Both the position numbers and the translations under genes were made by a program. Shown piece by piece: positions 14,403 to 31,737 of a stretch of DNA of 62,486 nucleotides. Source of the DNA: Minisyncoccota bacterium. GTDB lineage: Bacteria; Patescibacteriota; Minisyncoccia; Phycocordibacterales; UBA9973. Every line of letters begins with the position of its first letter. Position 1 is the stretch's first letter. Location: positions 1 to 62,486 of the forward strand of contig JAGORC010000001.1 of NCBI GenBank assembly GCA_018063015.1. Reading direction: 5' to 3'. The notes beneath the pieces were generated by a model. That model was not told the origin of the DNA and did no database searches. It saw only the letters and a program-made list of their open reading frames with translations.

Positions 14403-14404
14403 AT

Positions 14405-15181: not shown

Positions 15182-15238
15182 TTTCCTATTATCAACAGCA
15201 TGTCTTGTTGACTTTGATTAAAGTGTTATAATTTAAAC

Positions 15239-16180
15239 GTGCAATTGAATTTAACATCTAATAACAAGCGGATTCTATTCACTATCGCATTTGTAGTGAT
15301 AGTGGTTTTACTTTTCTCACTCAATACTAAATCAACAATCAAGAACCAAGCTGGTCAAAGTACGGGATTGGTCTATGGAGATAAGACTCTAAGTGATGTT
15401 GTAAACACAGATTCTGATCTAGACGGAGTGCTTGATTGGGAAGAAGGACTATGGGGTACCGATGCACTAAAAACAGATTCTGATGGTGACGGCGTACCAG
15501 ATGGAACAGAGATAAGTAAGCTAAAGGGAGTAGAAGCAATAGATGACGGTAGTATACTTGAAGAAGAAGAGAATTTAACAGAGACTGACAAATTCTCAAG
15601 AGAAGTATTCACTACAGTAGCCACACTAAGCCAGTCAGGAACATTAACCCAAGAAACACTGGATGGTTTAGGATCTTCTTTGGCACAACAGATAGAGAAC
15701 CCTACAGTAAGTAAGGTGTTTTTATTTAGTGACATAAAGACGACAGGCAACAATACCGCTGAGTCCGCAAGAATATATTTAAATTCCCTAGACAGCATAT
15801 TCAAACAACAACCTCTATTATATAAGAATGGTTATGATGGAATGGTATATACAATAAATGTAACTTTTTCTGATGTTCTACAGAAATACCTATTAGATCC
15901 AGAGAGCGACAAGGCTTTCTCTGGTCTTGCTCAAATAACAAAAGAAATAGAAAGTACCATTAAATCAATGAAGGGGCTCACAGTTCCTAGTGGCTTATCT
16001 GTTATACATCTAGATATACTAAATAGTTTCCAGAGAATCTTAGAAAATATGACAAACACTAAGCTAGCAATAAAAGATCCTATTGTTGCTATGGGTGGAG
16101 CAAGTAAGTATGAAGAAAATGGTATGGCACTAGAGAGTGCATTAAATAGATTAAAGGTAGCAGTAGGTCAAACTAATTAA
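15239..16180 (+). CDS. membrane-anchored secreted protein with thrombospondin-type-3-like Ca-binding repeats
   Basis: 313-aa ORF (GTG start). N-terminal TM helix (ILFTIAFVVIVVLLF). DxDxDGxxDxxE-type repeats DSDLDGVLDWEE / DSDGDGVPDGTE at about 15410-15512. TATAAT at 15227-15232. Confidence 0.6.
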   Translation: MQLNLTSNNKRILFTIAFVVIVVLLFSLNTKSTIKNQAGQSTGLVYGDKTLSDVVNTDSDLDGVLDWEEGLWGTDALKTDSDGDGVPDGTEISKLKGVEAIDDGSILEEEENLTETDKFSREVFTTVATLSQSGTLTQETLDGLGSSLAQQIENPTVSKVFLFSDIKTTGNNTAESARIYLNSLDSIFKQQPLLYKNGYDGMVYTINVTFSDVLQKYLLDPESDKAFSGLAQITKEIESTIKSMKGLTVPSGLSVIHLDILNSFQRILENMTNTKLAIKDPIVAMGGASKYEENGMALESALNRLKVAVGQTN

Positions 16181-16197
16181 TATTAACTATATCCAAA

Positions 16198-17853: not shown

Positions 17854-17910
17854 TTTATTTCATAATTAGTTGCTATAATTTATAGTAATAATCCTTCTTA
17901 GGATTGATTA

Positions 17911-20328
17911 ATGAAAAGTAGATTTTCTTATATTTTAATATCCGTATTAATGCTAGGATTTCTCCTTGCACCTTTTTCTCCTTTAATAATAGTTGATGGT
18001 GAGAAGATTGCTATAAAAATAGAGTCTAGAAAAGCTTTTGCTGAAACAAGATGGTACTACGAGTTCCAGCCACCTCTCGGTGGTAGCAACGTTATGTCTG
18101 TCGGATATGAAACAGAGACAGAATGTAACGCAGCCTCTCAGGTTACAAGCCAATCAGGTGGAACAATAATTAAAAATTGTTTTTCTTCAGACACAACACC
18201 AACAGCAACCGGTTCAGAATCTGAGAGCAATGGAACTGAGACAGGTCTCAAGGCAATGCTTAGAACATGTGGAATATCTAGAGGCTCATTCATCATAGGG
18301 TGTTTTATACAAATAATGTATTTCCTTTTTGTATCAATACCATCTTGGCTAATGCTTATGACTGCTCAGGTATTTGATACTGCTGCTGCTCTGACATTAA
18401 GTGATCAAGTTTACAGATCTGGGTTTATAAGCACAATTTGGACGATAGTAAGAGACTTCTCTAATGTATTTTTTATATTAATTCTACTTTATGCAGCGTT
18501 CCAAGTAATACTAGGACTCGGGCATGGTGGGGGAAAGAAGATTGTGGCTTCGGTGATACTTATCGCCTTAATGGTAAACTTCAGTTTATTTATTTCAAGG
18601 GTGGTAGTAGACGCTGGTAATGTATTAGGTCTTATTTTCTATAATAAAATATCAACAGACCACGTAAAATATCAACCAGTGAGTGATCCAACGCTAACAG
18701 GTGTAAAAGAGAAGGATTTAGCTGGAGCTCTGGTATCTAGTTTTGCAGTAAATAACTTTTTTAGCGCAGACTTCTTTAATGGATTAAAGAGTGACCCGGA
18801 CAACTGGGAAACTGCCGGATGTACAGGCGGTTGTGTAGGAAGAACAATAAATAATTGGCTTGCTGCGTCACTTATTGTCACATACGGTTTAATCGCATAC
18901 TCATTAGCTTGGATATTCTTAATTGTGGGAATAAGTTTTATTGGAAGACTGGCTACACTAATAATGCTTATGGTGATATCGCCCATAGCATTTGTCACAG
19001 CGACTGTTCCGACATTTAAAGGCATAGACACTATTGGTTTTGATAGTTGGCTGAAGAAACTTTTCCAGACATCATTCGTTGTTGCTGTGTTTATGGCGAT
19101 ACTTTACTTAGTTTCAGAAATATTAAAGGCGGATATATTTGATTCTTACAGTGTTGGACAAGAAGAACTGGGAATAGTGGCTAGGTTGATGCTCATATTC
19201 GTTCCTGCACTTTTGATACTTATCTTTTTGAAGAAAGGAAAGGAATATTCTGTAAAAGCTTCAGGTGAAATAACTGGTGCCCTTATTAGTGGCGCAAAGA
19301 TGCTAGGAGGACTTGCACTTGGTGGAGCAGCCCTTGGTGCTGCAGGTGCTGCCGTCATAGGAAGAAACACTGTTGGCAGTACTATGAACATGATGAAAAC
19401 AAGCCAAACCACAAGAGATGCCCATCTGAAAAATCTTAACTGGAACCCGAAAACTTGGGGTAAGGCACTTCAAGCTGGAATAGTAAACCAAACAGTAAAA
19501 GGTAGAGGAAAGGGTGTAAAAGACGTTCCTACTGGTACTTATGACATTAAAACTAGAAAAGAAATTATGGCAAGCAGAGAAGGTTCTAACTGGTTACGAG
19601 ATCAAATGTTGGGAGGAAATGCAAAGGATAAACAAAACAAAAAAGACAAATCTCACGCTACTCATGCATTAGATGAAGCAGCTGATAAAGTAGAGAAGGG
19701 TAAGAAATACTCAGATCTTGATACGAGTGGACAAAATTCAGCAAAAGAAAAAGCAACAAAATCAGAAATGGCTAAATTCTTATTTAATGGTAAAGATTTA
19801 TCAAAGTTAAGTGCTGGAGAAAATGCAATGATAAATAAAGCCGCAAACAATGATGGAACAATTAATAATGCTATATTTGATAGATACGCACAAAATCTAG
19901 GAAAAGACCCTAATAAATTCCACGATGGAGTACATATGGAAAAGGCCTACTTTAGTAAAGATACTCAGAGTACTGTCGGGCAAGCTGCAGGATGGGCTGG
20001 AAGAGGAGCAGCTTCTGGTACATATGATGTAAGGAACCTAAAGGGTGGAGCACTAACTGCAGCTGGTCTCGCTGCAGCTATGTTTGGACTAGCTCCTATT
20101 ATGGGAGCAGTGTTTGCAGCACATGCTTCAGGAGGATTGCGTTCAGGACTACAGAAGTTAACTGGTGTTGATCACGGAGACAGCAAGAAAGATTTCTTGA
20201 AGGACTTAAAGGCGACACTGGACTCAACATTGAAGAATCTAAAATTCGATATCAAGGTTACAGGGGACGGACATGGTGGAGGTGATGATCATAGCGCTGG
20301 ACATGGTGGAGGAGGAGGACATCATTAA
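17911..20328 (+). CDS. VirB6/TrbL-like polytopic membrane protein with long cytoplasmic tail
   Basis: 805-aa ORF. Signal/TM, Cys-containing ectodomain, multiple hydrophobic spans with TrbL/VirB6-like layout, Lys-rich C-terminal about 300 aa ending in a Gly/His tail. Located in a cluster with VirB4 and PrgI-like genes. TGCTATAAT at 17871-17879. Confidence 0.55.
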   Translation: MKSRFSYILISVLMLGFLLAPFSPLIIVDGEKIAIKIESRKAFAETRWYYEFQPPLGGSNVMSVGYETETECNAASQVTSQSGGTIIKNCFSSDTTPTATGSESESNGTETGLKAMLRTCGISRGSFIIGCFIQIMYFLFVSIPSWLMLMTAQVFDTAAALTLSDQVYRSGFISTIWTIVRDFSNVFFILILLYAAFQVILGLGHGGGKKIVASVILIALMVNFSLFISRVVVDAGNVLGLIFYNKISTDHVKYQPVSDPTLTGVKEKDLAGALVSSFAVNNFFSADFFNGLKSDPDNWETAGCTGGCVGRTINNWLAASLIVTYGLIAYSLAWIFLIVGISFIGRLATLIMLMVISPIAFVTATVPTFKGIDTIGFDSWLKKLFQTSFVVAVFMAILYLVSEILKADIFDSYSVGQEELGIVARLMLIFVPALLILIFLKKGKEYSVKASGEITGALISGAKMLGGLALGGAALGAAGAAVIGRNTVGSTMNMMKTSQTTRDAHLKNLNWNPKTWGKALQAGIVNQTVKGRGKGVKDVPTGTYDIKTRKEIMASREGSNWLRDQMLGGNAKDKQNKKDKSHATHALDEAADKVEKGKKYSDLDTSGQNSAKEKATKSEMAKFLFNGKDLSKLSAGENAMINKAANNDGTINNAIFDRYAQNLGKDPNKFHDGVHMEKAYFSKDTQSTVGQAAGWAGRGAASGTYDVRNLKGGALTAAGLAAAMFGLAPIMGAVFAAHASGGLRSGLQKLTGVDHGDSKKDFLKDLKATLDSTLKNLKFDIKVTGDGHGGGDDHSAGHGGGGGHH

Positions 20329-20343
20329 AATTAATTTAAAATT

Positions 20344-21312
20344 ATGGATCAAGAAGAATTACAAAAAAATATTGGGCTTTACTACTCCAAGCTACCTGAA
20401 GACATACAAAGAAAATTCTCTAGTATGGAATGGTTAAAAACATTAGAGGGTATTAGTAGCAAATATTCTCTAACTGACAAGCAGGTACAAATTTTAGGAA
20501 CAGAAACAACCCTAGCATTATTAGGAGTACTTCACTTAGGAGAATATGGGCAAATACTAGCAAAGGAACTAGAACTAAAGGATGATGTGCTACAAAATGT
20601 ATTAGCAGAAATTAATACTGAAATATTTAGAGAAATAACTCCAAAATTAAACGAGGCCTTTAATAAAAATAACCAACCAGATAAAAAAGAAGGGGAGAAT
20701 GTAATGACCCCAGGGCTAGAGAAGAAGCTAGAAGAACTACCAGGCTATGTAAAGGAAGCAGTAAATAAATCAAACTATGGGGAAGAACTATTCAAGATAG
20801 CTAAGGCTAAGGGACTTTCTATAACAGAGATAGGGGAATTAGAGAAAATAACAACAGATCTAATTGATGGCAAGTTGTCTCCTGAAAAACTTGAATCTAC
20901 AGTAGAGAGCATATTAAGGTTCGATAAGGATAAATCTACCGCCCTAGTATCAGAAATAAACGAAAAAATACTGAAAAACATAAGGAAAAACATGATGTCT
21001 GCAAGCGAGCTAGTGAGTACTCCTGTCCCAAAGTACACCAACCCAGAAAGTAGTGAAGCAATATTTAAAAAGGCGGGGATGGAAATACTCCAGAGTACTC
21101 CTGAGCTGAAAAGCGGAACCATATCGGAATCCAAGCTTGCTGAACCATTTAAAATACCATCTACAAAAACTGAATATTCAATAGCCAACATGTCTAAAAA
21201 TACACAAGCTGACAGTAGTACGCCGACAAAAGTAGAACCTCCTAAGGTAGAAACCCCAAAGGCTCCAGTATCTTACGGCAAGCAAGATCCTTATAGGATG
21301 CCTGTAGAATAA
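20344..21312 (+). CDS. soluble protein with internal duplicated helical module, function unknown
   Basis: 322-aa ORF with no TM. Two related about 55-aa modules (SLTDKQVQILGTETTLALLG..VLAEINTEIFREI versus GLSITEIGELEKITTDLIDG..LVSEINEKILKNI) and a Pro/Thr-rich tail. Confidence 0.55.
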   Translation: MDQEELQKNIGLYYSKLPEDIQRKFSSMEWLKTLEGISSKYSLTDKQVQILGTETTLALLGVLHLGEYGQILAKELELKDDVLQNVLAEINTEIFREITPKLNEAFNKNNQPDKKEGENVMTPGLEKKLEELPGYVKEAVNKSNYGEELFKIAKAKGLSITEIGELEKITTDLIDGKLSPEKLESTVESILRFDKDKSTALVSEINEKILKNIRKNMMSASELVSTPVPKYTNPESSEAIFKKAGMEILQSTPELKSGTISESKLAEPFKIPSTKTEYSIANMSKNTQADSSTPTKVEPPKVETPKAPVSYGKQDPYRMPVE

Positions 21313-21343
21313 ATCACTAGGAACTAAAGAATTTTTGAATTAT

Positions 21344-21362
21344 AATAAGAGTGACTCTTATT
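21344..21362. promoter_or_regulatory. 19-bp perfect palindrome overlapping a -10 box (candidate operator)
   Basis: AATAAGAGT-G-ACTCTTATT at 21344-21362. TATAAT at 21341-21346; the ATG of the PrgI-like gene is at 21374. Confidence 0.4.
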
Positions 21363-21373
21363 AAGAGCTTAGT

Positions 21374-21793
21374 ATGCAATTTAGAGTACCACAATTTTTA
21401 GACATTGAAGATACTATCTTCGGACCGTTTACATTTAAACAGTTCGTTTATCTAGTTGGTGGTGGAGCAATTTGTTTCGTAATTTATAAACTTATTGGGC
21501 TACTTGCTGGCATAATACCAATACTTATAGTTGCAGGATTTGCTTGTGCCCTAGCTTTCTATAGACCAAACAACAAACCGCTGGTTAATATGCTTGAGAA
21601 TGGTTTTAACTACTATACTCAGAGCAAGCTTTATATATGGAAGAGAAGAAAAGCAAAACCTGGACAACAAAAAAAGCTAGAAGAAGAGATAGTGATAGCC
21701 CCAACACCTAAATTAGATAAAGGAAAGCTTAGAGACTTGGCGTGGAGCTTAGATGTACTTGATTTAAAAAAAGAAGAAAACCAAGAAAATTAA
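21374..21793 (+). CDS. PrgI-family (VirB3-like) small membrane protein
   Basis: 139-aa ORF. N-terminus MQFRVPQFLDIEDTIFGPFTFKQFVYL followed by two TM helices, the pattern I recall for PrgI-family T4SS proteins. Immediately upstream of VirB4. Confidence 0.6.
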   Translation: MQFRVPQFLDIEDTIFGPFTFKQFVYLVGGGAICFVIYKLIGLLAGIIPILIVAGFACALAFYRPNNKPLVNMLENGFNYYTQSKLYIWKRRKAKPGQQKKLEEEIVIAPTPKLDKGKLRDLAWSLDVLDLKKEENQEN

Positions 21794-21794
21794 T

Positions 21795-22439
21795 ATGGCA
21801 TTAAGAGCAAGAGCAACTCAAGAGTTTGTACCTATAAAAGAAATACGCGACGGCGTAGTTGTTCTTAAGGACGGGGGGCTACGTGCTGTTGTGCTAGCAA
21901 ATTCTGTTAACCTAACACTTAAATCAGCGGATGAACAAAAGGCAACGATAATACAGTTTCAGAGCTTCCTTAACACTCTGGACTTCTATGTGCAGATATC
22001 TATTGAATCCAGAAGACTAGACATCAGGCCATATCTTCTTCAGTTAGAAAGTAGAATGAAAGTGCAGACAGAACCACTTCTTAAACTGCAAACGAAAGAG
22101 TATCTGGATTTCATTAGAAATTTTACAGAATCAGTAAGCATAATGACTAAGAACTTTTTTATTGTAGTACCTTATACAGAAACTTCTCTCAAACCAACTT
22201 CTGATGGAATCTTTGGAAGCTTCTTCTCTAAGAAGACTTCCAAGGAATTAAAGGCGGCGGAGCAGTTAGACTTCGAAGAAAAGAGAACCCAGCTAGAAGA
22301 GCGTGTATCTGTTATTCAACAAGGACTTGCAAGATGTGGAATCAAATCTGCTCAACTTGGAACAGAAGAAGTCGTGGAAGTATTTTATAAAGTTTTCAAT
22401 CCTGGAGAATCAGAAGGTAAAATAAAAATAGAACAATAA
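21795..22439 (+). CDS. soluble protein resembling the extreme N-terminal module of Gram-positive VirB4/TraE ATPases
   Basis: 214-aa ORF, 1 nt after the PrgI-like stop and 4 nt before virB4. Motif QEFVPIKEIRDGVVVLKDGGLRAVV..NLTLKSADEQ..IIQFQSFLNTLDFYVQI recalled from N-termini of Firmicutes-type VirB4 proteins (from memory, unverified). Confidence 0.4.
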   Translation: MALRARATQEFVPIKEIRDGVVVLKDGGLRAVVLANSVNLTLKSADEQKATIIQFQSFLNTLDFYVQISIESRRLDIRPYLLQLESRMKVQTEPLLKLQTKEYLDFIRNFTESVSIMTKNFFIVVPYTETSLKPTSDGIFGSFFSKKTSKELKAAEQLDFEEKRTQLEERVSVIQQGLARCGIKSAQLGTEEVVEVFYKVFNPGESEGKIKIEQ

Positions 22440-22443
22440 TAAA

Positions 22444-24291
22444 ATGGGATTTTTAGATAATTTATTAGGTAAAAAAAGTGAAACAAAAGAGGGAGCTACC
22501 CAGGCTTCTGTGTTGGCTGTTATGCCTGAAGAGATATATGAATCAGCAACGCTGGAACTCCAAGATATAATAGCCCCTTCCGCGCTAAAAATAGAATCTA
22601 AATCTATAAACCTAGGAGACAAGATAGCTAGAACATTTTTCATAATGTCTTATCCTAGATTTCTTACCGACAACTGGTTCTCACCAATAATAAACCTAGA
22701 CAAGGTGTTTGATATCGCAATATTTATTCACCCGATAGATACCTCTCTGGCATTAAGACAATTCCAGAAAAAAGTAGCGGAAGTGCAAAGCCAGATAAGC
22801 GTAAGAGAGGGGAAGGGTATGGTTAGAGACCCTAAACTAGATACAGCATATCAAGACCTAGAAGCATTGAGAGACAATCTAATGCAAGCACAGGAGAAGA
22901 TGTTTGACGTGGGTGTCTATATAACAATATATGCTGACAACGAATTAGAATTATTTAAAATAGAAAGTGAAATAAAGTCAGTCTTAGAATCAAAACTTAT
23001 CTACATCAAACCTGCCTTATTCCAACAAGATGAAGGATTCAAGAGTGTTATACCAATAGGTAATGATCTCTTATCAGTACATCAAAAACTAAATTCAGAA
23101 CCATTGTCTAGTATCTTCCCATTCGTATCTTTTGACCTTACTTCTGATAAGGGAATACTTTATGGAGTAAACAGACACAACTCAAGTCTAATAATATTTG
23201 ATAGGTTTTCTCTCGAGAACTATAACTCAGTTACATTTGCAAAATCTGGCTCAGGAAAATCGTATGCGACAAAACTAGAAATATTGAGATCGCTTATGTT
23301 TGATGTAGATGTAATAGTTATAGATCCTGAGAGGGAATACGAATACCTAGCTGATACTGTGGGTGGAAGATATTTCAATATTTCACTATCTTCTGACCAC
23401 CACATTAATCCCTTCGATCTACCAATACCAAGAGAAGATGAAACAGCAGAAGATGTTCTTCGTTCGAACATAATCAACCTAGTAGGATTGTTCCGTCTAA
23501 TGTTAGGAGGTCTAACTCCAGAGGAAGATGCCCTTGTCGACAGAGCTATATCAGAAACATATGCAATTAAAGACATAACTCCAGAATCAGATTTTGGAAA
23601 TATAGAACCTCCACTACTTTCTGACTTCGAAATGGTTCTATCAGGTATGGAAGGAAGTGAATCTGTAGTTCAGCGATTAACAAAATATACAAAAGGTTCT
23701 TGGTCTACCTTCATAAACAGGCCATCTAACGTAGACATAAACAAGAAGTTCGTAGTCTTTTCTGTAAGAGATATGGAGGACGAACTTAAGCCTGTAGCTA
23801 TGTATATAGTTACCCACTACATATGGAACGTCATAAGAAAAAATCTAAAGAAGAGAATCCTTGTAGTGGACGAAGCTTGGTGGATGATGAAATCAGAAGA
23901 TACTGCTTCTTTCTTGTACTCAATAGCAAAAAGAGGAAGAAAATACTACCTAGGACTCGCAACAATAACTCAGGATGCAGCTGACTTTATGAAATCCCCA
24001 TATGGAGTTCCTATTGTTACAAACTCGTCTATCCAGCTACTTCTAAAGCAGTCTCCAAGTACAATAGATGTATTACAGAAAACATTTAACCTAACAGATG
24101 AAGAAAAGTATCTATTACTAGAGTCAGGGGTAGGAGAGGGTATATTCTTTGCCGGTACTAAGCACGTAGCCATAAAGGTTATTTCTTCTTATACAGAAGA
24201 TCAAATAATAACTTCAGATCCTTCTCAGATACTCTCAATAAAGAAATCTAAACAAGAACTAGAGGAAGCAGAAGAAGTTGGCAAAGCCTAG
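22444..24291 (+). CDS. virB4: VirB4/TrbE-family type IV secretion ATPase
   Basis: 615-aa ORF; Walker A FAKSGSGKSYATK, Walker B RILVVDEAWWMM, ITQDAADF motif. N-terminal IAPSALKI..INLGDKIARTFFIMSYPRFL pattern typical of VirB4. Confidence 0.85.
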   Translation: MGFLDNLLGKKSETKEGATQASVLAVMPEEIYESATLELQDIIAPSALKIESKSINLGDKIARTFFIMSYPRFLTDNWFSPIINLDKVFDIAIFIHPIDTSLALRQFQKKVAEVQSQISVREGKGMVRDPKLDTAYQDLEALRDNLMQAQEKMFDVGVYITIYADNELELFKIESEIKSVLESKLIYIKPALFQQDEGFKSVIPIGNDLLSVHQKLNSEPLSSIFPFVSFDLTSDKGILYGVNRHNSSLIIFDRFSLENYNSVTFAKSGSGKSYATKLEILRSLMFDVDVIVIDPEREYEYLADTVGGRYFNISLSSDHHINPFDLPIPREDETAEDVLRSNIINLVGLFRLMLGGLTPEEDALVDRAISETYAIKDITPESDFGNIEPPLLSDFEMVLSGMEGSESVVQRLTKYTKGSWSTFINRPSNVDINKKFVVFSVRDMEDELKPVAMYIVTHYIWNVIRKNLKKRILVVDEAWWMMKSEDTASFLYSIAKRGRKYYLGLATITQDAADFMKSPYGVPIVTNSSIQLLLKQSPSTIDVLQKTFNLTDEEKYLLLESGVGEGIFFAGTKHVAIKVISSYTEDQIITSDPSQILSIKKSKQELEEAEEVGKA

Positions 24292-24327
24292 CTTTATTTA
24301 GAGAACGATTTATCTTATAATTAGAGA

Positions 24328-25308
24328 ATGCGACTAAAGGCTTTAATACTTGGTTTTATATCTCTATCTTTTTTCTTAACTGGAGGGATTGTTTTTGCAC
24401 AACAAGAATCAACAAGTATTATAGTTAATACTATACCTATAAATCCTGCACCAGGAGAAGATGTTAGTGTTTACATATCAAGCTACTCAGAGAATCTTGA
24501 TATTGCCACTATGACTTGGTTTGTTGATGGTAAAAGTGTTTTATCTGGTGTAGGAGAAAAGTCTCTTATATTAAAAGCTCCTAATTTTGGACAGGAAACC
24601 AAGGTTGTTATAAAGGTTAAATCTCAAACTGAAGAATCTCAAGTAAGCACGGTTTTAAAGCCTTCTTATATGGTACTCCTATGGGAAGCAACGGATTCTT
24701 ATGTACCCCCTTTCTACAAAGGCAAGGCTTTACCTTCCCCAGACAGTTTTGTTAAGGTTGTGGCTCTGCCAGAGATTACCTCTGGTGGGGTAAAATTAGA
24801 TCCTAAAAATATATCTTATACTTGGCAAAAAGATTTTAACAATATGCCAACTGATTCTGGTTATGGAAAGAACTATTTTATATACAAGAATGATTATTTA
24901 GAAAATTCTAATAATATCGGTGTGACTGCTTATTTAACAGACCAACAATATTCATCGACAGGAAGAATCGACATAAGTATGTACCAGCCATTTATAGACC
25001 TATATCGGAAAGATTTGAAATTAGGTATAGATTGGAACAATGTATTAAACAATAGTCACTTCATAAAAGGTAGTGACATTATAGTTGCATCGCCGTATTT
25101 TATATCACCCAAAGACATAAGAAGGCCAGATTTAATTTTTAATTGGGCTATAAACAACACAACTGTTGACAATACGGGCGTAAATAAAAATATGCTTCCA
25201 TTACAAACAGAAGAAGGAGTATCTGGTTCTGCTAACGTAAAACTAGAAGTAAATAACTTAAATAAAATATTCCAAACAGCAGAGAAGGAAATTAATATAT
25301 CATTTTAA
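24328..25308 (+). CDS. secreted protein, function unknown
   Basis: 326-aa ORF; signal peptide (LKALILGFISLSFFLTGGIVFA) and beta-rich sequence. TATAAT at 24316-24321 lies 6 nt from the ATG. Confidence 0.55.
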   Translation: MRLKALILGFISLSFFLTGGIVFAQQESTSIIVNTIPINPAPGEDVSVYISSYSENLDIATMTWFVDGKSVLSGVGEKSLILKAPNFGQETKVVIKVKSQTEESQVSTVLKPSYMVLLWEATDSYVPPFYKGKALPSPDSFVKVVALPEITSGGVKLDPKNISYTWQKDFNNMPTDSGYGKNYFIYKNDYLENSNNIGVTAYLTDQQYSSTGRIDISMYQPFIDLYRKDLKLGIDWNNVLNNSHFIKGSDIIVASPYFISPKDIRRPDLIFNWAINNTTVDNTGVNKNMLPLQTEEGVSGSANVKLEVNNLNKIFQTAEKEINISF

Positions 25309-25313
25309 TAAAT

Positions 25314-26945
25314 ATGAAAAATATATATAAAAAATTAGTATTTCTAGGATTAGCGCTTATATGTTTTCTATCCATTCATGGTAGTGCTAGCGCTCAGCTA
25401 CTGAACCTTAGTTCAGATAATAGTAATCTACAAGTAGGACAATCTGCTGTAATAACTGCAACATCTGGATCTGGATCTGGTAGTGTATTTTTTAAACAAA
25501 CTCCAGCCACAGGTGGCCGTTTTGACCCGACTATATGTACTACAACAGGTGGAATAATGTCTACCTCATGTAGTGTTAGATTCTACCCCACATCAGCAGG
25601 AACCTACACTATATCTGGTACTCTAACCATTAATGGGACAACAACTCAAAGCCTATCATCAACCAATCCTAGAATCAAAGTTACAGCAAACACAAGCACT
25701 GCTCCTACTCTAATAGGGGATATTGTGGACTCGACACCACCTACTATTTTTCAAGGAGATCAAGTCGAGCTAAAAATAACAGCAAGCCCAATACCTTCAG
25801 GTGGGCCTACTGTGTTTATCAGTAGCCCAACTCTAGGCAATATAGGAACTTGTGTAATAAACACAACAGCTGGAGGAATATGTACTTCTGGTTTTGGTCC
25901 TATCCGACTTAATACTGGAATAGAGGGCGCACATGATATAAACTTCTCAACTACATCTTGGCCTAACTACACAGGAACTGTTTCAGGAACAATAAAAATG
26001 ACAGTTCAAAAGACGATAACTAACCCTCCTGTGCTAGATGTATGTTTTCCCCCAAAAATAAAAACCTCTACTGGTGCATGTGTTGATCCTAGTACGATAG
26101 ATACTGGGTATACATATTTGGCTCCATTATCTGAAGACAAGTCATTTGACCCAGCTCAAGAAAATGCGTTAAGTAAATATATAAACATTATTGTAAAGAT
26201 AGCTATAGGCATAGCTGCCGTTCTAGCTGTAATAATGATTGTAATGGGAGGAATACAGTATATGACAAGCGAACTCATTTCTAGTAAAGAAGAAGGTAAG
26301 AAAAGAATAACAAATGCTATCTTGGGATTGTTAATAGCATTAGGTGCTTATCTAATATTGTTTACAATAAATCCCAACTTGTTGAAATTGGATGTAGCTG
26401 TACCATCAACGGAATTATCATTTACACCAGGTGAGGATGGATTAGGAACAACACCCGAATCCACTTCAACAACATCTAGTGGAAACGTAAGAAGAAAGGT
26501 TAATTTAAAATTAAAGACTGGTGGAACTACAGAGGTAATTGCATGTGAAGCCACAGACAAAGTTCAAGTAAGTGCTTTTGGTACTAGTTTTAGTATACAC
26601 AAAAATTTAGTTCCAAGTCTTAGAAGAATTGATGCTAGGTGGAAACAGTTAAATCCATCATATAAAATTCCACTAACAGTTGCTGACAAAGGAGCAATGG
26701 GGGGTTATGTCTGCAGGAATGCAAGAGGTATGGGTAAGCTTTCTTGGCATGCTTATGGCTTAGCGGTAGACATAAACCCTAGTACGAATCCAGCTGGTAA
26801 TAAATTAATAACGGATATGCCAGCAGCCTTTGTAAAACTTTGGAAAGATGAAGGATGGGGTTGGGGAGGTGGCTGGAGTAGTCAAAAAGATGCAATGCAT
26901 TTTAGTAAAGGTAAAAATGAAGGTGGTGATATGACAGGTGAATAA
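25314..26945 (+). CDS. secreted Ig-like domain / T4SS-pilin-like TM hairpin / M15 peptidase fusion protein
   Basis: 543-aa ORF. Signal peptide; Thr/Ser-rich beta region with Cys pairs; two-helix hairpin IIVKIAIGIAAVLAVIMIVMGGIQYMTS..KKRITNAILGLLIALGAYLILF (nt 26166-26384); C-terminal SWHAYGLAVDI and DAMHF zinc-peptidase M15 motifs (nt 26526-26918). Confidence 0.65.
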   Translation: MKNIYKKLVFLGLALICFLSIHGSASAQLLNLSSDNSNLQVGQSAVITATSGSGSGSVFFKQTPATGGRFDPTICTTTGGIMSTSCSVRFYPTSAGTYTISGTLTINGTTTQSLSSTNPRIKVTANTSTAPTLIGDIVDSTPPTIFQGDQVELKITASPIPSGGPTVFISSPTLGNIGTCVINTTAGGICTSGFGPIRLNTGIEGAHDINFSTTSWPNYTGTVSGTIKMTVQKTITNPPVLDVCFPPKIKTSTGACVDPSTIDTGYTYLAPLSEDKSFDPAQENALSKYINIIVKIAIGIAAVLAVIMIVMGGIQYMTSELISSKEEGKKRITNAILGLLIALGAYLILFTINPNLLKLDVAVPSTELSFTPGEDGLGTTPESTSTTSSGNVRRKVNLKLKTGGTTEVIACEATDKVQVSAFGTSFSIHKNLVPSLRRIDARWKQLNPSYKIPLTVADKGAMGGYVCRNARGMGKLSWHAYGLAVDINPSTNPAGNKLITDMPAAFVKLWKDEGWGWGGGWSSQKDAMHFSKGKNEGGDMTGE

Positions 26946-26950
26946 ATATT

Positions 26951-28318
26951 ATGTCGAAAAGAAATTTTATATTGTTAATAATAGTGTTGGTTATAATAAT
27001 ATTAGCTGTTTTGGCTTTTATGTTTTTCTCTGGAAATAAAGGCGAGACAATATCTGACGAAGGTGGTACCAATTTCTTCGCTAAATTTAATCCATTTGGT
27101 AAAAACAATAATCAAGAAGAGGATACAAATAGTGATGAAGAGGGGACAACAGATACGACACCAACATTGCCGACAGAAGGATTAAGATTAAGAAAGGTAT
27201 CTACGATGCCAGTTGCTGGATATGGAATATTCTCAAAAGAAAGATTCAAGGAATTGCCTATGCCAGAGGACACGACAGGAACTGAATTTGATGAAGAAGA
27301 GGATTCAACACCAATTTTAGACGATAGTAAGACTGTTTTACCTACTAAATCAATAACTCCTCCTTCAACTGAGTTTGCAACAGCACTAAGGTACGTTGCT
27401 AAGGAAACTGGATATGTATATCAAACTTTTGCAGACAAAATAGAGGAAAGACGTTTTTCTTCAACTTATATACCTAAGGTGCATGAAGCATTCTTTGGCA
27501 ACAAAGGGGAGAGTGTTGTCATGCGATATTTGAAATCCGACGACAGAACCATTGATACTTTTTTAGGGACACTGCCTAAGGAAGTTCTAGGAGGGGACAC
27601 TAGTGACACTAATGAATTAAAAGGTTCTTTCTTGCCGGAAAATGTGACAAACATATCTTTGTCTCCTGATTTATTTAATATATTTTATACTCTCAATACA
27701 GGTAACTCATTTATAGGTACGACAGCAGGCATAGTAGGCGACAAGAAGAATCAGATATTTAGTTCTGCTTTTACAGAATGGCTAACTGAGTGGCCTAATC
27801 AGAAGATTATAACCTTAACAACAAAACCATCTTCTGGAATCCCAGGATATATGTATTTTCTAGACAGCACAAAAAAGGTAACTTCAAGAGTGCTCAGTGA
27901 TATAAAGGGACTTACAACTCTAACTAGTCCTACTGGTAAATTCGTACTTTATGGAAACGATGTCCTAGAAATGTCTATCGTAAACGTAACTTCTAAAAAT
28001 ATAACGAATGTTCCAATAAAGGGGTTGCCTGAAAAATGTGTTTGGGGTAAGAATGATTTAGCAATATACTGCCTTGCTCCTGGCTATGTATCTAATGGAA
28101 AATATCCAGACATATGGTATCGAGGTGAGATTTCTTTTTCTGATCAAATATGGAAGTTTGATTCAATCTCAGGAGCAACAGAAATTATTTTAGACCCGCT
28201 AACAGTAGAAGGGGGAGAGGACATAGATGGAATAAGATTAATGCTAGATACAAACGAAAACTACTTATTTTTCATGAATAAGAAAGATTCATATCTCTGG
28301 GAGTTTAAATTAAACTAA
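26951..28318 (+). CDS. membrane-anchored extracytoplasmic protein, function unknown
   Basis: 455-aa ORF; N-terminal TM (FILLIIVLVIIILAVLAFMFF), acidic Thr-rich linker, large beta-rich (propeller-like?) domain. Confidence 0.55.
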   Translation: MSKRNFILLIIVLVIIILAVLAFMFFSGNKGETISDEGGTNFFAKFNPFGKNNNQEEDTNSDEEGTTDTTPTLPTEGLRLRKVSTMPVAGYGIFSKERFKELPMPEDTTGTEFDEEEDSTPILDDSKTVLPTKSITPPSTEFATALRYVAKETGYVYQTFADKIEERRFSSTYIPKVHEAFFGNKGESVVMRYLKSDDRTIDTFLGTLPKEVLGGDTSDTNELKGSFLPENVTNISLSPDLFNIFYTLNTGNSFIGTTAGIVGDKKNQIFSSAFTEWLTEWPNQKIITLTTKPSSGIPGYMYFLDSTKKVTSRVLSDIKGLTTLTSPTGKFVLYGNDVLEMSIVNVTSKNITNVPIKGLPEKCVWGKNDLAIYCLAPGYVSNGKYPDIWYRGEISFSDQIWKFDSISGATEIILDPLTVEGGEDIDGIRLMLDTNENYLFFMNKKDSYLWEFKLN

Positions 28319-28800
28319 ATAGAACCTAAATATTTTATAACTACTCTTCTATTAGGACCAGTTCCTTCTGATTCTGTTTTCAGGTCTTGTTCGTTTGATA
28401 GAAATTCATGTACTATACGTCTTTCAAATGCAGGCATAGGATCAATTTCAACACTTGATTTGAAGTATCTGGCACGCTCTGCCATCATATGTGCAATAGC
28501 GTGTAGATTCTCTATTCTTTTCTTCTGAAATCCATTTATATCTATAATAAACTCTGGGAGATTTTCTCTGTCTTCTTCTTTTGTTTTGTTTTCTACTATT
28601 TTCTTTACTAAATGGTTAAAGGCAAACAAAGCTTCTCCTCCACGGCCCAAGAAGGCATATGAACTAGGTGACTCTACAGCAAACCATAGTGCATTGTCTT
28701 TACCCAAAGAAGTTTCTTCTTGTATTGCAACATTTGAGTCTTCAAGGCCTAGCTTAGACAAGATTTCTCTTATTAAATTTAATATTTCATTACTATTCAT
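28315..28800 (-). CDS. jag: Jag/KhpB-like KH plus R3H RNA-binding protein
   Basis: 161-aa ORF; C-terminal R3H pattern (FERRIVHEFL....EGTGPNRRVVI). Position downstream of yidC. Confidence 0.75.
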   Translation of the reverse strand: MNSNEILNLIREILSKLGLEDSNVAIQEETSLGKDNALWFAVESPSSYAFLGRGGEALFAFNHLVKKIVENKTKEEDRENLPEFIIDINGFQKKRIENLHAIAHMMAERARYFKSSVEIDPMPAFERRIVHEFLSNEQDLKTESEGTGPNRRVVIKYLGSI

Positions 28801-29527
28801 TACTCTTTACTGTGGTTAAGCTTATGTTTTTCTTGTTGGTGTATATTTGCTGACCAATACTGAAGATATTACTTGTAATCCAATAAAGTGCAACTGCTCC
28901 AGAAACACTGTATGCAATAAATGCTACAAGGAAAGGGAAAACATATCTCATTTGAATTTGCATACTCCTAGCAAAGTTCTCCTGGAAAGAATTACCGTCT
29001 CCTTTGTTTTTAGGTGGCTTAGGCATGAAGTAAGCTTGGAAATACTGAGAAATACCAGCTAAAACAGCCAATATTAAACTTTTCTGACCGATATCAAGCA
29101 ACCCTAGAAACTGAGTGTTAACATTTTCTGGTGCGCTAATAAATGAATACAGTAGCCCCTCATCAAAATTTATACCTTTATAGAACACATAGTATAGGGC
29201 GAATATTATCGGTATTTGGATTAAAACAAGTAAGCATCCAGAGAAAGGATTAGTTTTATGTTTCTTATATAGTTCAAAAGTGAGTTTGGCTTGCTCTTCT
29301 TTACTCTTACCACTTTTCTTTATGGCATCCATTTCTGGAGCCAGTAAATTCATTTTAGCCTGATTTTCTATAGACTTCTTGGAAAGTGGAGATAGAAGAA
29401 TCTTAACAAATAAGGTTAATATAACCACCGCAAGACCTAGGTCACCCCCAGGCATTACAGAAACTAAAAAAGCCAGAATGTTTAATAATGGCTTATATAA
29501 AAGAATATTCCATATATTGTGAAGCAT
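28793..29527 (-). CDS. yidC: membrane protein insertase YidC (short form)
   Basis: 244-aa polytopic ORF; conserved synteny rnpA-yidD-yidC-jag; motif PLSKKS..M..L.P....IKKK-like region. Confidence 0.9.
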   Translation of the reverse strand: MLHNIWNILLYKPLLNILAFLVSVMPGGDLGLAVVILTLFVKILLSPLSKKSIENQAKMNLLAPEMDAIKKSGKSKEEQAKLTFELYKKHKTNPFSGCLLVLIQIPIIFALYYVFYKGINFDEGLLYSFISAPENVNTQFLGLLDIGQKSLILAVLAGISQYFQAYFMPKPPKNKGDGNSFQENFARSMQIQMRYVFPFLVAFIAYSVSGAVALYWITSNIFSIGQQIYTNKKNISLTTVKSNE

Positions 29528-29562
29528 TTCATCATTCTATATGAAAACTACTTAAATTACAA

Positions 29563-29772
29563 TTACTTCACCGGATCAATATGATTTTTCTGCCAAGGAT
29601 GACACCTAAGTATTCTAAGAAACCCCATAAAAGAGCCCTTAAAAACACCATATTTAACAATAGCTTGTTTGGTATATTCTGAACAGGTAGGGAAGAATAC
29701 ACAGCTTGGTTTTTTGTAGATACTTATTCTTTTTTGGTAAAACTCGATAGATTTTATAAAAATATTTTTCAT
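29563..29772 (-). CDS. yidD: membrane protein insertion efficiency factor YidD
   Basis: 69-aa ORF with CVFFPTCSEYTKQAI..G..KG......RILRCHPW signature. Confidence 0.9.
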   Translation of the reverse strand: MKNIFIKSIEFYQKRISIYKKPSCVFFPTCSEYTKQAIVKYGVFKGSFMGFLRILRCHPWQKNHIDPVK

Positions 29773-30122
29773 ATCTTGGCTAAAGTGTCCTTTATTTCTT
29801 TATCTAATTGGGGATATATATCAGCTTTTTGGGTGTTTGGCTCTTTTAAAATAGACTTTTTATTAAAAACAAACACCCCGGAAAAACCTTGGGGCAGTAG
29901 GGATATTTTATCTTTTAAAGCATCATATCCTGCTCTGCGTAGCATATTTCTCTTGTGTGCCTTATTAGATACGCTTTTAGGGGCAGAGAACGCCACCTTG
30001 GGTAGTTTAGAGCCTTTGTTTATAAGGTATTTTAGAAAAAAGTTGCTAGAGTAAATAACTCTACCAACCTTAAATATTTCACCAACCTCCTTACGTGAAA
30101 TTCTATTTTTCTTTGGGAGCAT
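29769..30122 (-). CDS. rnpA: ribonuclease P protein component
   Basis: 117-aa basic ORF, KAHKRNMLRR motif. Starts 1 nt after the rpmH stop; overlaps yidD by 4 nt. Confidence 0.85.
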   Translation of the reverse strand: MLPKKNRISRKEVGEIFKVGRVIYSSNFFLKYLINKGSKLPKVAFSAPKSVSNKAHKRNMLRRAGYDALKDKISLLPQGFSGVFVFNKKSILKEPNTQKADIYPQLDKEIKDTLAKI

Positions 30123-30123
30123 T

Positions 30124-30258
30124 TTATGCTGAGATTTTAGCTCGACCCTTTCTTCTTCTTCTTAAAAGGACGTTTTTCCCGTTTGTAGTCTTAGATCTAG
30201 ATAGAAAACCGTGGGCCTTTGCTCTTTTTCTCTTGTTGGGACTGTATGTTTGTGACAT
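30124..30258 (-). CDS. rpmH: 50S ribosomal protein L34
   Basis: Not in the ORF track (44 aa). Manual translation [44 protein letters not shown] matches the L34 consensus. Confidence 0.9.
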
Positions 30259-30264
30259 GTTGCT

Positions 30265-30293
30265 AGTATACCCATACATAATAAAAAAGTCAA
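30265..30293 (-). promoter_or_regulatory. canonical promoter of rpmH (leaderless)
   Basis: Minus strand: -35 TTGACT (30288-30293), 17-nt spacer, -10 TATACT (30265-30270), 6 nt, ATG at 30258. Confidence 0.7.
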
Positions 30294-30319
30294 AAATGAA
30301 AAATGTGTGTTGAAATACT

Positions 30320-30341
30320 TTATCAACAGATTATCAACAGA
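30320..30341 (+). promoter_or_regulatory. two tandem DnaA-box-like 11-mers
   Basis: Exact direct repeat TTATCAACAGA x2 (30320-30330, 30331-30341). TTATCAACA differs by one base from the TTATCCACA consensus. Lies between the divergent rpmH and dnaA promoters. Confidence 0.6.
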
Positions 30342-30396
30342 GTTAGTAAGATTTTACTTATTCACTAAGGAGGGGAGAATAGTATAATATTCCACT

Positions 30397-31737
30397 ATGG
30401 ACACAAAACAACTTTGGAAGGACTGCTTGGTTGAGATAGAGAATGAAATTTCAAAAGCAAACTTCAGTACTTGGTTTAAAAACACCAACATAATCAAGGA
30501 AGAATCTGGAATTATATATGTTGGGGTGCCTAATGAGTTCGTTAGAGATTGGTTAAAGAATAAATACCATAAACTAATCACAAAAACGATAGCTGACGCC
30601 TATGAAAACATGCGCGCCGTAGAGTACATGATAAGTAAAATAGAAAGCCCAAGGGAAGAAATTTCTAAAAACACCCAGGTTGTTGACAAAGAACTCCCTC
30701 TTAAAGACTTATATGTGAACCCAGACGACAATCTAAACTCTAGATATAGATTTGATTCATTTATAGTTGGATCTTTCAATGAGCTGGCTTATGCAGCCTC
30801 TCAAGCGATATTAGAGAACCCAGGAACAAAATATAATCCTTTCTTTGTTTATGGTGGGACAGGATTAGGGAAGACCCACTTACTACAAGCAGTAGGAAAC
30901 TCACTGAAAGAAAAGTATCCTAGTAAGAAAGTTCACTATTTAACCTTAGAGAAATTTGCTACAGACTTTATTAATTCACTACAGAACAATAAAGCTAATT
31001 CTTTTAAAGAAAAATATAGAAAATATGATCTATTAATAATAGACGATATACAATTCATAGGTAAAATGGAGAAAATACAGGAAGAATTATTCCATACCTT
31101 TAATACTTTCTATGAAAACAATAAGCAAATAATATTTTCATCTGACAAGCACCCAAATTATATACCTGAATTAGCTGATAGGCTTAAATCTAGATTTGCT
31201 GCAGGTATGATTGTAGATGTGACAGAACCAGAATATGAATCTAGATTAGCTATATTAAAGGTAAAATTAAAAGAATTGAATGTTAACTTAAACGATGAAG
31301 TGGTTGAGTATATAGCAAGTTCAATTCAGGGTAATATAAGGGAGTTAGAGGGTAGTCTAAACACTATAATATGCCAATATAAGCTTAAAAACAAAGCTCC
31401 TAATTTAATTGAAGTTAAAAATCTATTAAAAAATAACATAAAACCTAAGAAAAATGTTGCAATAAAAGATGTAGTTAAAATAGTTAGTGATTATTACAAC
31501 TTAGAAGAGTCCTCTGTTTATGAAAAAACAAGAAGGAAGGAGATTGTTAAAGCAAGACAGGTGGTAATGTATATCCTAAGAGAAGATTTTAATGTATCCT
31601 ACCCTTTAATAGGCCAAAAATTAGGTGGTAAGGATCACACAACAGTAATACATTCATATTTAAAAATAAAAGATGATTTAAAGAATGATCCGCAATTACT
31701 TCAGGAATTAGAACAGATAAGAATTATGTTTAAATAG
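30397..31737 (+). CDS. dnaA: chromosomal replication initiator DnaA
   Basis: 446-aa ORF; AAA+ Walker A GGTGLGKTHLLQA, DDIQF box, C-terminal DNA-binding domain (HTTVIHS). TATAAT at 30383-30388 lies 8 nt before the ATG. Confidence 0.95.
   Translation: MDTKQLWKDCLVEIENEISKANFSTWFKNTNIIKEESGIIYVGVPNEFVRDWLKNKYHKLITKTIADAYENMRAVEYMISKIESPREEISKNTQVVDKELPLKDLYVNPDDNLNSRYRFDSFIVGSFNELAYAASQAILENPGTKYNPFFVYGGTGLGKTHLLQAVGNSLKEKYPSKKVHYLTLEKFATDFINSLQNNKANSFKEKYRKYDLLIIDDIQFIGKMEKIQEELFHTFNTFYENNKQIIFSSDKHPNYIPELADRLKSRFAAGMIVDVTEPEYESRLAILKVKLKELNVNLNDEVVEYIASSIQGNIRELEGSLNTIICQYKLKNKAPNLIEVKNLLKNNIKPKKNVAIKDVVKIVSDYYNLEESSVYEKTRRKEIVKARQVVMYILREDFNVSYPLIGQKLGGKDHTTVIHSYLKIKDDLKNDPQLLQELEQIRIMFK

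Follow-up and report, generated by a model that had tools for sequence, protein, structure and literature searches.

The 62,486-nucleotide stretch analysed here (the window), from a Minisyncoccota bacterium, encodes within its type IV secretion system (T4SS) locus a single 543-amino-acid (aa) protein in which a VirB2-like two-helix hairpin is joined to an immunoglobulin (Ig)-like region on one side and to a putative zinc peptidase of family M15 on the other. We conclude that the product is very likely an extracytoplasmic peptidoglycan enzyme that is fused to a VirB2-like subunit and forms an integral part of the T4SS. With moderate confidence, we further assign the gene as the VirB2-like membrane subunit of the monoderm-type T4SS of Patescibacteria, carrying a peptidoglycan-cutting enzyme in cis. 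The architecture of the gene, its locus, its catalytic residues, its orthologous slot and the exchange of its C-terminal enzyme (hereafter the head) were all observed directly. An earlier note, made from the window alone, had regarded the pilin–M15 fusion as an unusual solution. Instead, related genomes share the architecture, and in those of the Paceibacteria/Nomurabacteria type this T4SS gene normally takes the form of a fusion. The simplest and most likely reading is that this clade merged a VirB2-like subunit with a wall-cutting (VirB1-type) function.

The product is composed, in order, of a signal peptide, a tandem Ig-like region, the two-helix hairpin, a linker and the M15 peptidase head (Table 1), with ~257 aa before and ~186 aa after the hairpin module. 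It is a 100% match to the NCBI entry [quoted passage not shown] (P0001). The earlier note had described a 543-aa open reading frame (ORF) with four parts; its coordinates, the ATG start and all of the parts were borne out by Pfam, hydropathy and AlphaFold2 (AF2) modelling, and its nucleotide positions for the hairpin (26166–26384) and for the M15 signatures were correct. The AF2 model of aa 262–543, built from an 80-sequence alignment, reached a mean predicted local distance difference test score (pLDDT) of 85.8, with a compact C-terminal domain (pLDDT >90) and a disordered linker at aa 368–379. The model of aa 28–285 (pLDDT 76) contains two β-sandwiches, the first at ~90. The ~260-aa β-rich region with paired cysteines noted earlier (aa 28–~262) indeed holds the pairs Cys75/86, 180/190 and 244/256 and appears in the model as two Ig-like sandwiches. 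Cysteines are confined to the predicted outer parts. Together with the signal peptide, the two transmembrane (TM) helices and the Lys/Arg-rich loop between them, these outer-only pairs predict an N-out/C-out topology, in agreement with the earlier proposal that both large domains lie outside the membrane.

The head matched Peptidase_M15_4 at aa 473–531 with 57.6 bits against a cut-off of 25, and its signatures are SWHAYGLAVDI (aa 477–487) and DAMHF (aa 526–530). His479, Asp486, Asp526 and His529 are conserved at 98–100% among 91 M15_4 homologues. They align with the H-x6-D and D-x2-H elements (S-N-H...V-D and D-Y-P-H) of Ply500 (PDB ID: 2vo9), residues that we take to be metal ligands. The earlier note would have withdrawn its proposal had the zinc triad been missing; judged by this alignment, the triad H479/D486/H529 appears intact. 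Phmmer retrieved the L-Ala-D-Glu peptidase Ply500 at 2.4e-5 and LysB4 (6akv) at 8.2e-5. Foldseek against BFVD identified phage M15C proteins (E = 1.1e-9, root mean square deviation 2.2 Å over 126 columns, 32% identity), and matches to the PDB by fold were weak (VanXYc, E = 0.18). In the model the head has a LAS fold. These similarities suggest kinship of the head, as a zinc peptidase, with the L-Ala-D-Glu endopeptidases of phages, although ~30% identity is too low to read a bond specificity from them.

The hairpin matched the T4SS_pilin family (PF18895) at aa 286–348 with 28.6 bits, above the cut-off of 26.6. On the same stretch, TrbC/VirB2 (PF04956) scored 17.3 bits, under its cut-off of 27.9, and the NCBIfam Mbov_0395 pilin-like model scored 26.3 bits, also below cut-off. 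The hydrophobic stretches lie at ~aa 289–311 and 331–357 by hydropathy, AF2 placed the helices at 285–318 and 322–352 (pLDDT 86–95), and Lys and Arg are abundant in the segment that joins the two stretches, SSKEEGKKRITN. A signal peptide followed by two hydrophobic helices with a short basic loop is the layout of VirB2/TrbC-type pilins, and genes of the VirB3, VirB4 and VirB6 types lie nearby, as expected of a pilin in a T4SS locus. In size, however, the 543-aa protein departs from these pilins, which are ~70–130 aa when mature and essentially hairpin only.

Evidence for the pilin family extends beyond the window. Among 100 independently sampled family representatives, 89 matched PF18895 and 11 matched TrbC at E ≤ 1e-3, the best TrbC match reaching 5.5e-6, and an exhaustive search recovered 19,081 representative clusters with the hairpin at E ≤ 1e-3. 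Across 80 species, the hairpin core showed a median identity of 67%, compared with 46–51% for neighbouring genes. In the Y-x-x-L-A-P-L motif before the hairpin, Y, L and P are invariant in one family alignment, and the motif recurs in two further alignments. The TINPNLL motif at its end has invariant N, P, L and L positions in the hairpin-family alignment, and stand-alone family members stop a few residues past TINPxLL. For PF18895 proteins, a 2025 review grants only the "potential to elaborate conjugative pili" (PMC12857230). No second pilin-like ORF was found with a hairpin hidden Markov model in the 62-kb window or in five related loci, and a second hairpin ORF occurred in just 1 of 80 species loci. 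This lone example (locus L018, 6302–7036) encodes 245 aa with a ~90-aa tail and lies downstream of the homologue of a 455-aa protein that neighbours the fusion. Polypeptides with 2 to 17 pilin hairpins were also observed (P0320, P0332, P0291, P0242, P0270, P0336, P0241 and P0297), the longest array being that of P0320 (1775 aa, 17 hairpin copies). These could be genuine polyproteins of several pilins, or else arrays of pilin genes that gene callers joined in lineages with an alternative genetic code.

To see how the gene varies in its clade, we surveyed 80 species-representative genomes, all metagenome-assembled genomes of the Paceibacteria/Nomurabacteria type, each contributing a single locus identified by motifs of the close subfamily. 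In every one, the hairpin gene occupied the same slot. VirB4 lay within 4 kb in 79 of the 80 loci, a homologue of the 326-aa upstream neighbour was present in 78/78, and a homologue of the 455-aa downstream neighbour in 69/69. A fused C-terminal head was present in 71 of 77 complete genes (~92%). The heads were distributed among NlpC/P60 (14), lysozyme-like (11), a class with invariant H/D/HWH residues (10), VanY (10), YkuD (6), SLT_2 (4), M15_4 (3), Amidase_2 (1) and small unknown classes (12); the remaining 6 genes have no head. More than eight head classes thus alternate in the slot, and M15_4 is a minority. The head-less genes end just past TINPxLL and are followed by the 455-aa homologue, which indicates that they are true stand-alone versions.

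The 120 best database matches gave a similar picture. The hairpin was present in all of them and was followed by M15_4, VanY, YkuD, NlpC/P60, SLT_2 or Amidase_2 domains, or by one of two large classes to which Pfam assigned no family. Wherever an enzyme domain could be recognised past the hairpin, also in the sample of 100 representatives, it is peptidoglycan-active. In five fully inspected loci the gene order was the same, with M15_4, VanY, NlpC/P60, YkuD or SLT_2 in the slot. The earlier note had stated that hydrolases of canonical systems are usually lytic transglycosylases or NlpC/P60 enzymes. The window protein does carry an M15_4 domain alone, with no catalytic homology to VirB1, TrsG or CD419 (SLT, CHAP, NlpC/P60), yet those types are also among the interchangeable heads: NlpC/P60, SLT_2, SLT_3-like or CHAP domains were found in orthologous-slot proteins of other species. 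The lysozyme-like class (c4) matched C-type lysozyme at E = 0.005 and SLT_3 at E = 0.012, both below threshold. A further class of ~150 aa (alignment A1; for example, P0022, P0027, P0035, P0037, P0042, P0049 and P0050), which accounts for 10 of the 77 species loci, has invariant H96, H102, D110, E142 and H145-W-H147 as well as conserved Cys residues. This class (c2) had no Pfam or PDB sequence match; judging from its invariant H/D/HxH residues only, it could represent an undescribed LAS-like peptidoglycan peptidase family.

The head is exchanged even between near-identical strains. On contig L001, which derives from another sample, the genes flanking the fusion are 96–100% identical in nucleotide sequence to those of the window, and identity at the protein level is 100% for VirB4, 99% for PrgI and 98% for the 455-aa protein downstream. 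By contrast, the last ~550 nt of the fusion gene show ~42% identity, which is the random level, compared with ~90% just before. The exchanged segment begins directly after the TINPNLL codons and ends at the stop codon. The replacement in L001 is a VanY-class head, whose class profile matched VanY and LdcB/YodJ carboxypeptidases at 2e-13; with a VanY-type head in one strain and an M15_4 head in the other, the two probably attack different bonds. Similar exchanges were observed elsewhere. Among 16 pairs whose pre-head parts (N-terminal region plus hairpin) are at least 70% identical, 8 carry unrelated heads, and P0006 (M15_4) and P0020 (SLT_2) differ in head class although their pre-head parts are 98% identical. 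Likewise, head class differs between loci that share 96%, 90% and 89% identity in the 455-aa protein. Head class showed no phylogenetic signal, the nearest backbone neighbour sharing the class in 6 of 75 cases compared with 7.4 ± 3.0 after shuffling. Recent long-range transfer of cassettes was not detected, since in none of 244 species pairs with the same head class did the similarity of the head exceed that of the backbone by 20 points or more. We also considered a toxin–immunity cassette and rejected it: the downstream gene starts 5 nt past the stop, is conserved in 69/69 loci and is 98% identical across the M15_4/VanY swap, with no intervening ORF. This cassette-like exchange is the most informative feature of the gene and was out of sight of the earlier note.

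Variation is also concentrated in the first Ig-like domain. Among four close relatives, identity was 55–73% for Ig1, 84–91% for Ig2, 96–100% for the hairpin, and either ~94% or ~20% for the head. Between the window and L001, Ig1 fell to 68–73% nucleotide identity between flanks of 96–100%. Two other genes also showed drops between these strains, namely the VirB6-like gene (27–81% nucleotide identity at 18039–20039) and a 551-aa gene (70–79% at 16439–17039), so that several surface-exposed T4SS parts, and not only the fusion gene, are strain-level hotspots. Querying the PDB by Foldseek with the model of aa 28–285 identified tandem Ig-like domains of surface adhesins (66 matches at E ≤ 1e-3). 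Among them were intimin (7.6e-6), adhesins of the AgI/II family and, at 1e-4, the Ig-like domains of PrgB, the T4SS adhesin of pCF10. A search for homologues of the N-terminal Ig region returned none besides P0002–P0004.

Table 1 Parts of the fusion gene and neighbouring T4SS genes in the window.
Feature	Position (nt)	Strand	Basis
Whole gene, 543 aa	25314..26945	+	ORF with ATG start; T4SS_pilin and Peptidase_M15_4 above curated Pfam cut-offs
Signal peptide, aa 1–27, MKNIYKKLVFLGLALICFLSIHGSASA, then Q	25314..25394	+	Hydropathy peak aa 3–27; AxA-type end SASA before Q, by sequence reading
Ig-like β-sandwich 1, aa 28–138, hypervariable part	25395..25727	+	AF2 pLDDT ~90; Foldseek adhesin matches
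Ig-like β-sandwich 2, aa ~150–232	25761..26009	+	AF2 pLDDT 65–75
Cys-bounded loop (C244...C256) and Y-x-x-L-A-P-L motif (aa 268–272), before hairpin	26043..26129	+	
VirB2-like two-helix TM hairpin, aa 285–352, short Lys/Arg-rich loop	26166..26369	+	Pfam PF18895; AF2 helices
T-I-N-P-N-L-L motif, aa 351–357, end of pilin module and left cassette boundary	26364..26384	+	
Flexible Thr/Ser/Gly-rich linker, aa 358–381	26385..26456	+	AF2 pLDDT <50 at aa 368–379
M15 (LAS) putative zinc peptidase head, aa 382–543	26457..26942	+	Peptidase_M15_4 57.6 bits
Putative Zn/catalytic residues of head: H479, D486, D526, H529	26748–26750, 26769–26771, 26889–26891, 26898–26900	+	
VirB6-like polytopic membrane protein, hypervariable segments	17911..20328	+	Weak NCBIfam match, Mbov_0396 integrative and conjugative element TM protein
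PrgI/VirB3-like protein	21374..21793	+	Pfam PrgI 34.6 bits (cut-off 27)
TrsD/TraC-like piece	21795..22439	+	NCBIfam TrsD E = 1.4e-6
VirB4 ATPase	22444..24291	+	NCBIfam CD1110-family VirB4 373 bits (cut-off 325)
Conserved secreted 326-aa protein, directly upstream of fusion	24328..25308	+	No Pfam/NCBIfam match
Conserved 455-aa membrane-anchored protein (N-terminal TM helix), directly downstream	26951..28318	+	No Pfam/NCBIfam match

The T4SS context proposed in the earlier note was confirmed by the VirB6-like, PrgI, TrsD and VirB4 genes (Table 1). From the VirB6-like gene to the 455-aa gene, the locus forms a tightly packed plus-strand cluster, beyond which lie the convergent jag/yidC/yidD/rnpA genes and then dnaA and dnaN. 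A relaxase-less T4SS of monoderm type close to dnaA has been described for Patescibacteria (PMC12102498), and this locus is that system. An operon structure is suggested by the tight gene spacing alone, and a promoter and terminator scan of 14000–30500 gave nothing above shuffled expectation. The 326-aa and 455-aa neighbours probably represent core components of this T4SS that have yet to be characterised. VirB4 is split: its N-terminal region is a separate 214-aa TrsD/TraC-like ORF that ends 4 nt before the ATPase ORF. The split was common to all related loci inspected, indicating a conserved arrangement rather than a frameshift. The T4SS locus contains no hydrolase besides the fusion gene, and no TraF-like processing peptidase was seen among the locus proteins. 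Elsewhere in the window, ~8 kb upstream of the T4SS genes, a protein with LysM and Peptidase_M23 domains is encoded on the minus strand (6243–7259). A class A penicillin-binding protein (transglycosylase/transpeptidase) lies at 33321–35837, so the organism builds and remodels peptidoglycan of its own. Two plus-strand ORFs at 7616–9382 (588 aa) and 9360–12461 (1033 aa) had no Pfam match, and the region 7616–12461 has an unusually strong skew (GC ~+0.2, AT ~+0.34–0.37).

From sequence, predicted structure and comparative genomics we infer how the protein is oriented in the membrane, how its hairpin docks or polymerises, whether and on which bond the enzyme is active, and whose wall it attacks. 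After Sec export and cleavage of its signal peptide, the protein would be held in the membrane by the two-helix hairpin, with the Lys/Arg-rich loop on the cytoplasmic side and both large parts outside. The conserved hairpin, as the constant and structurally constrained part of a T4SS core gene, would dock or oligomerise at the VirB6/VirB3/VirB4 machine. The M15 head, on its ~25-residue flexible linker, may locally cleave peptidoglycan stem peptides where the machine crosses the wall, and the tandem Ig-like N-terminus would project outward as an adhesin or spacer. The head and Ig1 are replaced rapidly between lineages and strains, and such replacement suggests that selection on the outer parts comes most probably from something variable outside the cell, the wall or surface of a partner (host), and not from its own wall alone.

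We therefore favour a role at the cell–cell interface, although action on the partner's wall, alone or besides the cell's own, is proposed tentatively and at slightly less than even confidence. Strain-level exchange of heads and a hypervariable Ig1 in otherwise identical backgrounds point in this direction, as do the randomised relation of head class to phylogeny and the adhesin-like N-terminus. In addition, VanY/LdcB-like and YkuD heads would, judged by their families, edit a wall rather than perforate it, and they resemble antibacterial wall effectors. Such sister heads are not obvious hole-makers, so the "drilling" envisaged in the earlier note is no more than a possibility.

Several points weigh against a subunit of the VirB2 family acting on a partner's wall. 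A linker of ~25 residues is too short to reach a partner's wall unless the structure is extended or the contact very tight. The head is absent in 6 of 77 species. No immunity-like gene lies beside it, unlike in known interbacterial wall-targeting effectors, and the rapid turnover could also be caused by phage or predator pressure on exposed surfaces. By analogy with Gram-positive T4SS hydrolases, which act on the donor's own wall, and with no other hydrolase in the locus, self-directed action would be the parsimonious prior. As for the hairpin, the pilin similarity claimed earlier stands at the level of PF18895, which passes its threshold, but it does not extend to any solved VirB2/TraA pilin: the hairpin profile retrieved none among PDB sequences, and Foldseek with the hairpin-plus-head model against the PDB gave a best E of 0.18, with hairpins only of a generic membrane type at E ≥ 1. 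A two-helix hairpin is a generic fold, too simple to discriminate, and the pilin assignment consists of one Pfam match just over threshold, weak TrbC matches and context. The label "VirB2-like" is accordingly founded on Pfam and context, not on structure.

The most credible alternative, although clearly short of an even chance, is that the protein is a purely self-directed VirB1 analogue. Its hairpin would be a mere anchor and its enzyme would open the cell's own peptidoglycan for channel assembly, as PrgK, TraG (pIP501), TcpG and CwlT do. In its favour, the T4SS genes belong to the monoderm MPF-FATA type (PMC12102498) and include no other hydrolase, the enzyme is tethered close to its own membrane, sister-species proteins in the slot carry classical VirB1-type SLT and NlpC/P60 domains, and there is no immunity gene. 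The diversity of heads would follow if any wall-cutting activity sufficed. However, strains with 96–100% identical flanks have the same wall, yet their head and Ig1 differ, and a head class that is random with respect to phylogeny is hard to reach by neutral replacement. VanY/LdcB-like and YkuD heads would trim or re-link stem peptides instead of opening the mesh, and an adhesin-like hypervariable N-terminus would be superfluous. A pro-pilin, by comparison, is rather improbable. In that case the Ig region and the enzyme would be cut off at Y-x-x-LAPL and TINPxLL, leaving a small mature VirB2-like pilin and a soluble wall hydrolase, an outcome compatible with either the partner-directed or the self-directed reading. 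The two motifs show strong conservation and sit precisely at either end of the pilin core, and stand-alone members end just past TINPxLL. Classical T4SS pilins are known to be trimmed at the C-terminus (TrbC) or processed at the N-terminus and cyclised (VirB2). Nevertheless, the locus shows no TraF-like processing peptidase, and the motifs may be conserved as structural parts of the hairpin module.

We consider it very improbable that the gene encodes a housekeeping wall enzyme with a generic two-helix anchor, neighbouring the T4SS by chance, the pilin match being a false positive on hydrophobic helices. PF18895 is indeed just 2 bits above threshold with TrbC below, the fold search returned generic membrane hairpins only, and no sequence match to solved pilins was obtained. 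Against this stand an invariant synteny in the T4SS operon across 80 species, the PF18895 and TrbC matches in 89 and 11 of 100 representatives, a hairpin conservation far beyond the needs of an anchor, and the fact that the same family forms an essential pilin array in Southlakia epibionticum. An artefactual fusion of neighbouring genes by a frameshift or assembly join, which the earlier note had named as a risk, found no support and is practically negligible as an explanation. The identical protein occurs on 2 contigs, and the same continuous ORF was recovered on independent contigs from different samples. The reading frame is preserved in relatives that are 83% identical (3 independent contigs) and 79% identical (8–10 independent contigs), the linker is in frame and conserved in the relative P0002, and 71 of 77 species have the orthologue in fused form.

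A bolder form of the partner-directed reading, which we regard as unlikely though less so than a pro-pilin, is a catalytic "drilling" pilus. The hairpin would polymerise or cap the channel, each subunit would show an Ig adhesin and an active enzyme at the host wall, and the exchanged head and Ig1 would match host wall chemistry and set host range. If true, the catalytic pilus would be a polymorphic effector system inside a machine subunit, for which no immunity gene is needed.

All parts of the fusion are known separately, as T4SS pilins of Patescibacteria, T4SS wall hydrolases and M15 lysins. What appears undescribed is their covalent fusion as the standard gene form in a large clade, as does a polymorphic-toxin-like head exchange after a fixed motif without an immunity gene. 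We found no description of the fusion or of head exchange in full-text literature, subscription-only papers and InterPro architecture tables being outside reach, and public domain-architecture listings may contain the combination without comment. The finding touches on how monoderm T4SSs cross peptidoglycan, especially that of a partner, and on the role of the essential T4SS of Patescibacteria, and it offers a testable lead on how these host-dependent, ultra-small bacteria get through cell walls. A head turnover faster than speciation, together with a hypervariable adhesin-like domain on the same polypeptide, points to an interface with the outside, most plausibly the host. It predicts that head class tracks the wall chemotype of the host, that the head is located at the contact site and that head exchange alters host range. 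The family is also a natural library of compact secreted peptidoglycan enzymes, with thousands of clusters and more than eight classes, at least one of them without a Pfam or PDB match.

Several known systems resemble the fusion in part. The Gram-positive VirB1-like hydrolases PrgK (pCF10), TraG (pIP501), TcpG (pCW3) and CwlT (ICEBs1), as well as SEML1_0006/0007 of S. epibionticum, are, like the fusion, encoded in T4SS operons and have an N-terminal membrane anchor and modular extracytoplasmic wall-degrading domains; the fusion likewise has its catalytic domain predicted outside. They differ from it in the anchor, which in the fusion is a VirB2-family hairpin and not a single TM helix or lipobox, and in having two or three catalytic domains rather than one head per protein. 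Furthermore, the head of the fusion is swapped among more than eight enzyme classes in close relatives, and the M15_4 head of the window has no homology to VirB1, TrsG or CD419.

Phage M15C endolysins and virion hydrolases provided the best matches to the head (Ply500 2vo9, LysB4 6akv, the T5-type endolysin 8q2g and large phage proteins with a C-terminal M15C domain). Virion hydrolases also share its plan, in which a lysin module forms the C-terminus of a structural subunit in a machine that crosses walls. The fusion, however, is chromosomal and outside any prophage, its head is joined to a membrane hairpin instead of a tail protein, and identity is ~30%. Enzymatic flagellins (the flagellinolysin family) have a polymerising core whose hypervariable exposed region can be an active enzyme, giving a catalytic filament. 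They serve as a model for the catalytic pilus, although family and machine are unrelated and polymerisation of the fusion is hypothetical.

Polymorphic toxins and effectors include CdiA-CT, Rhs, LXG and specialised type VI secretion system effectors, with Tae, Tge and the YkuD-fold Tlde1 among those that target the wall. As in these proteins, a conserved N-terminal part of the fusion ends at a sharp motif (TINPxLL), after which unrelated C-terminal enzymes follow and are exchanged in near-identical strains, and its head classes overlap with antibacterial wall effectors (NlpC/P60-type, muramidase, YkuD). Unlike them, the fusion lacks a cognate immunity gene, its conserved part is an integral machine subunit rather than a passenger, and no recently transferred cassette was detected among the 244 same-class species pairs.

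The closest relatives are the PF18895 pilins of other Patescibacteria. These belong to the same Pfam family, have a signal peptide followed by a two-helix hairpin, and are encoded in the same kind of relaxase-less, dnaA-proximal, monoderm-type locus with VirB4, TrsD, PrgI and VirB6. Unlike the fusion, they are small (~100–185 aa), carry no enzyme and occur in arrays of 2–11 paralogues (~25% identity); the fusion has one copy per locus, a hairpin conserved at ~67%, large variable outer domains and a fused peptidoglycan enzyme. In S. epibionticum, the T4SS is essential for epibiotic growth (PMC10633639), and so is its PF18895 pilin array, SEML1_0014–0019, consisting of small separate proteins (Wang et al. 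2023, PMC10633639). Directly downstream of virB4, SEML1_0007 has a C-terminal Hedgehog/DD-peptidase (M15-fold) domain and is a separate essential gene, and SEML1_0006, with lysozyme-like and cysteine-peptidase domains, is also located downstream of virB4 and essential (PMC10633639 supplement). On this point, too, the earlier note's view of an unusual solution needs revision. In the survey of Quinonero-Coronel et al. 2025 (PMC12102498), most VirB2-bearing Patescibacteria genomes are without VirB1. The hydrolase missing from that survey sits, in this clade, within the pilin gene, and a VirB2-like subunit physically linked to a wall-cutting activity would explain such "VirB2 without VirB1" genomes. 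By analogy, the fusion can be read as a "Rosetta stone" of two parts that are separate in S. epibionticum and needed in the same machine.

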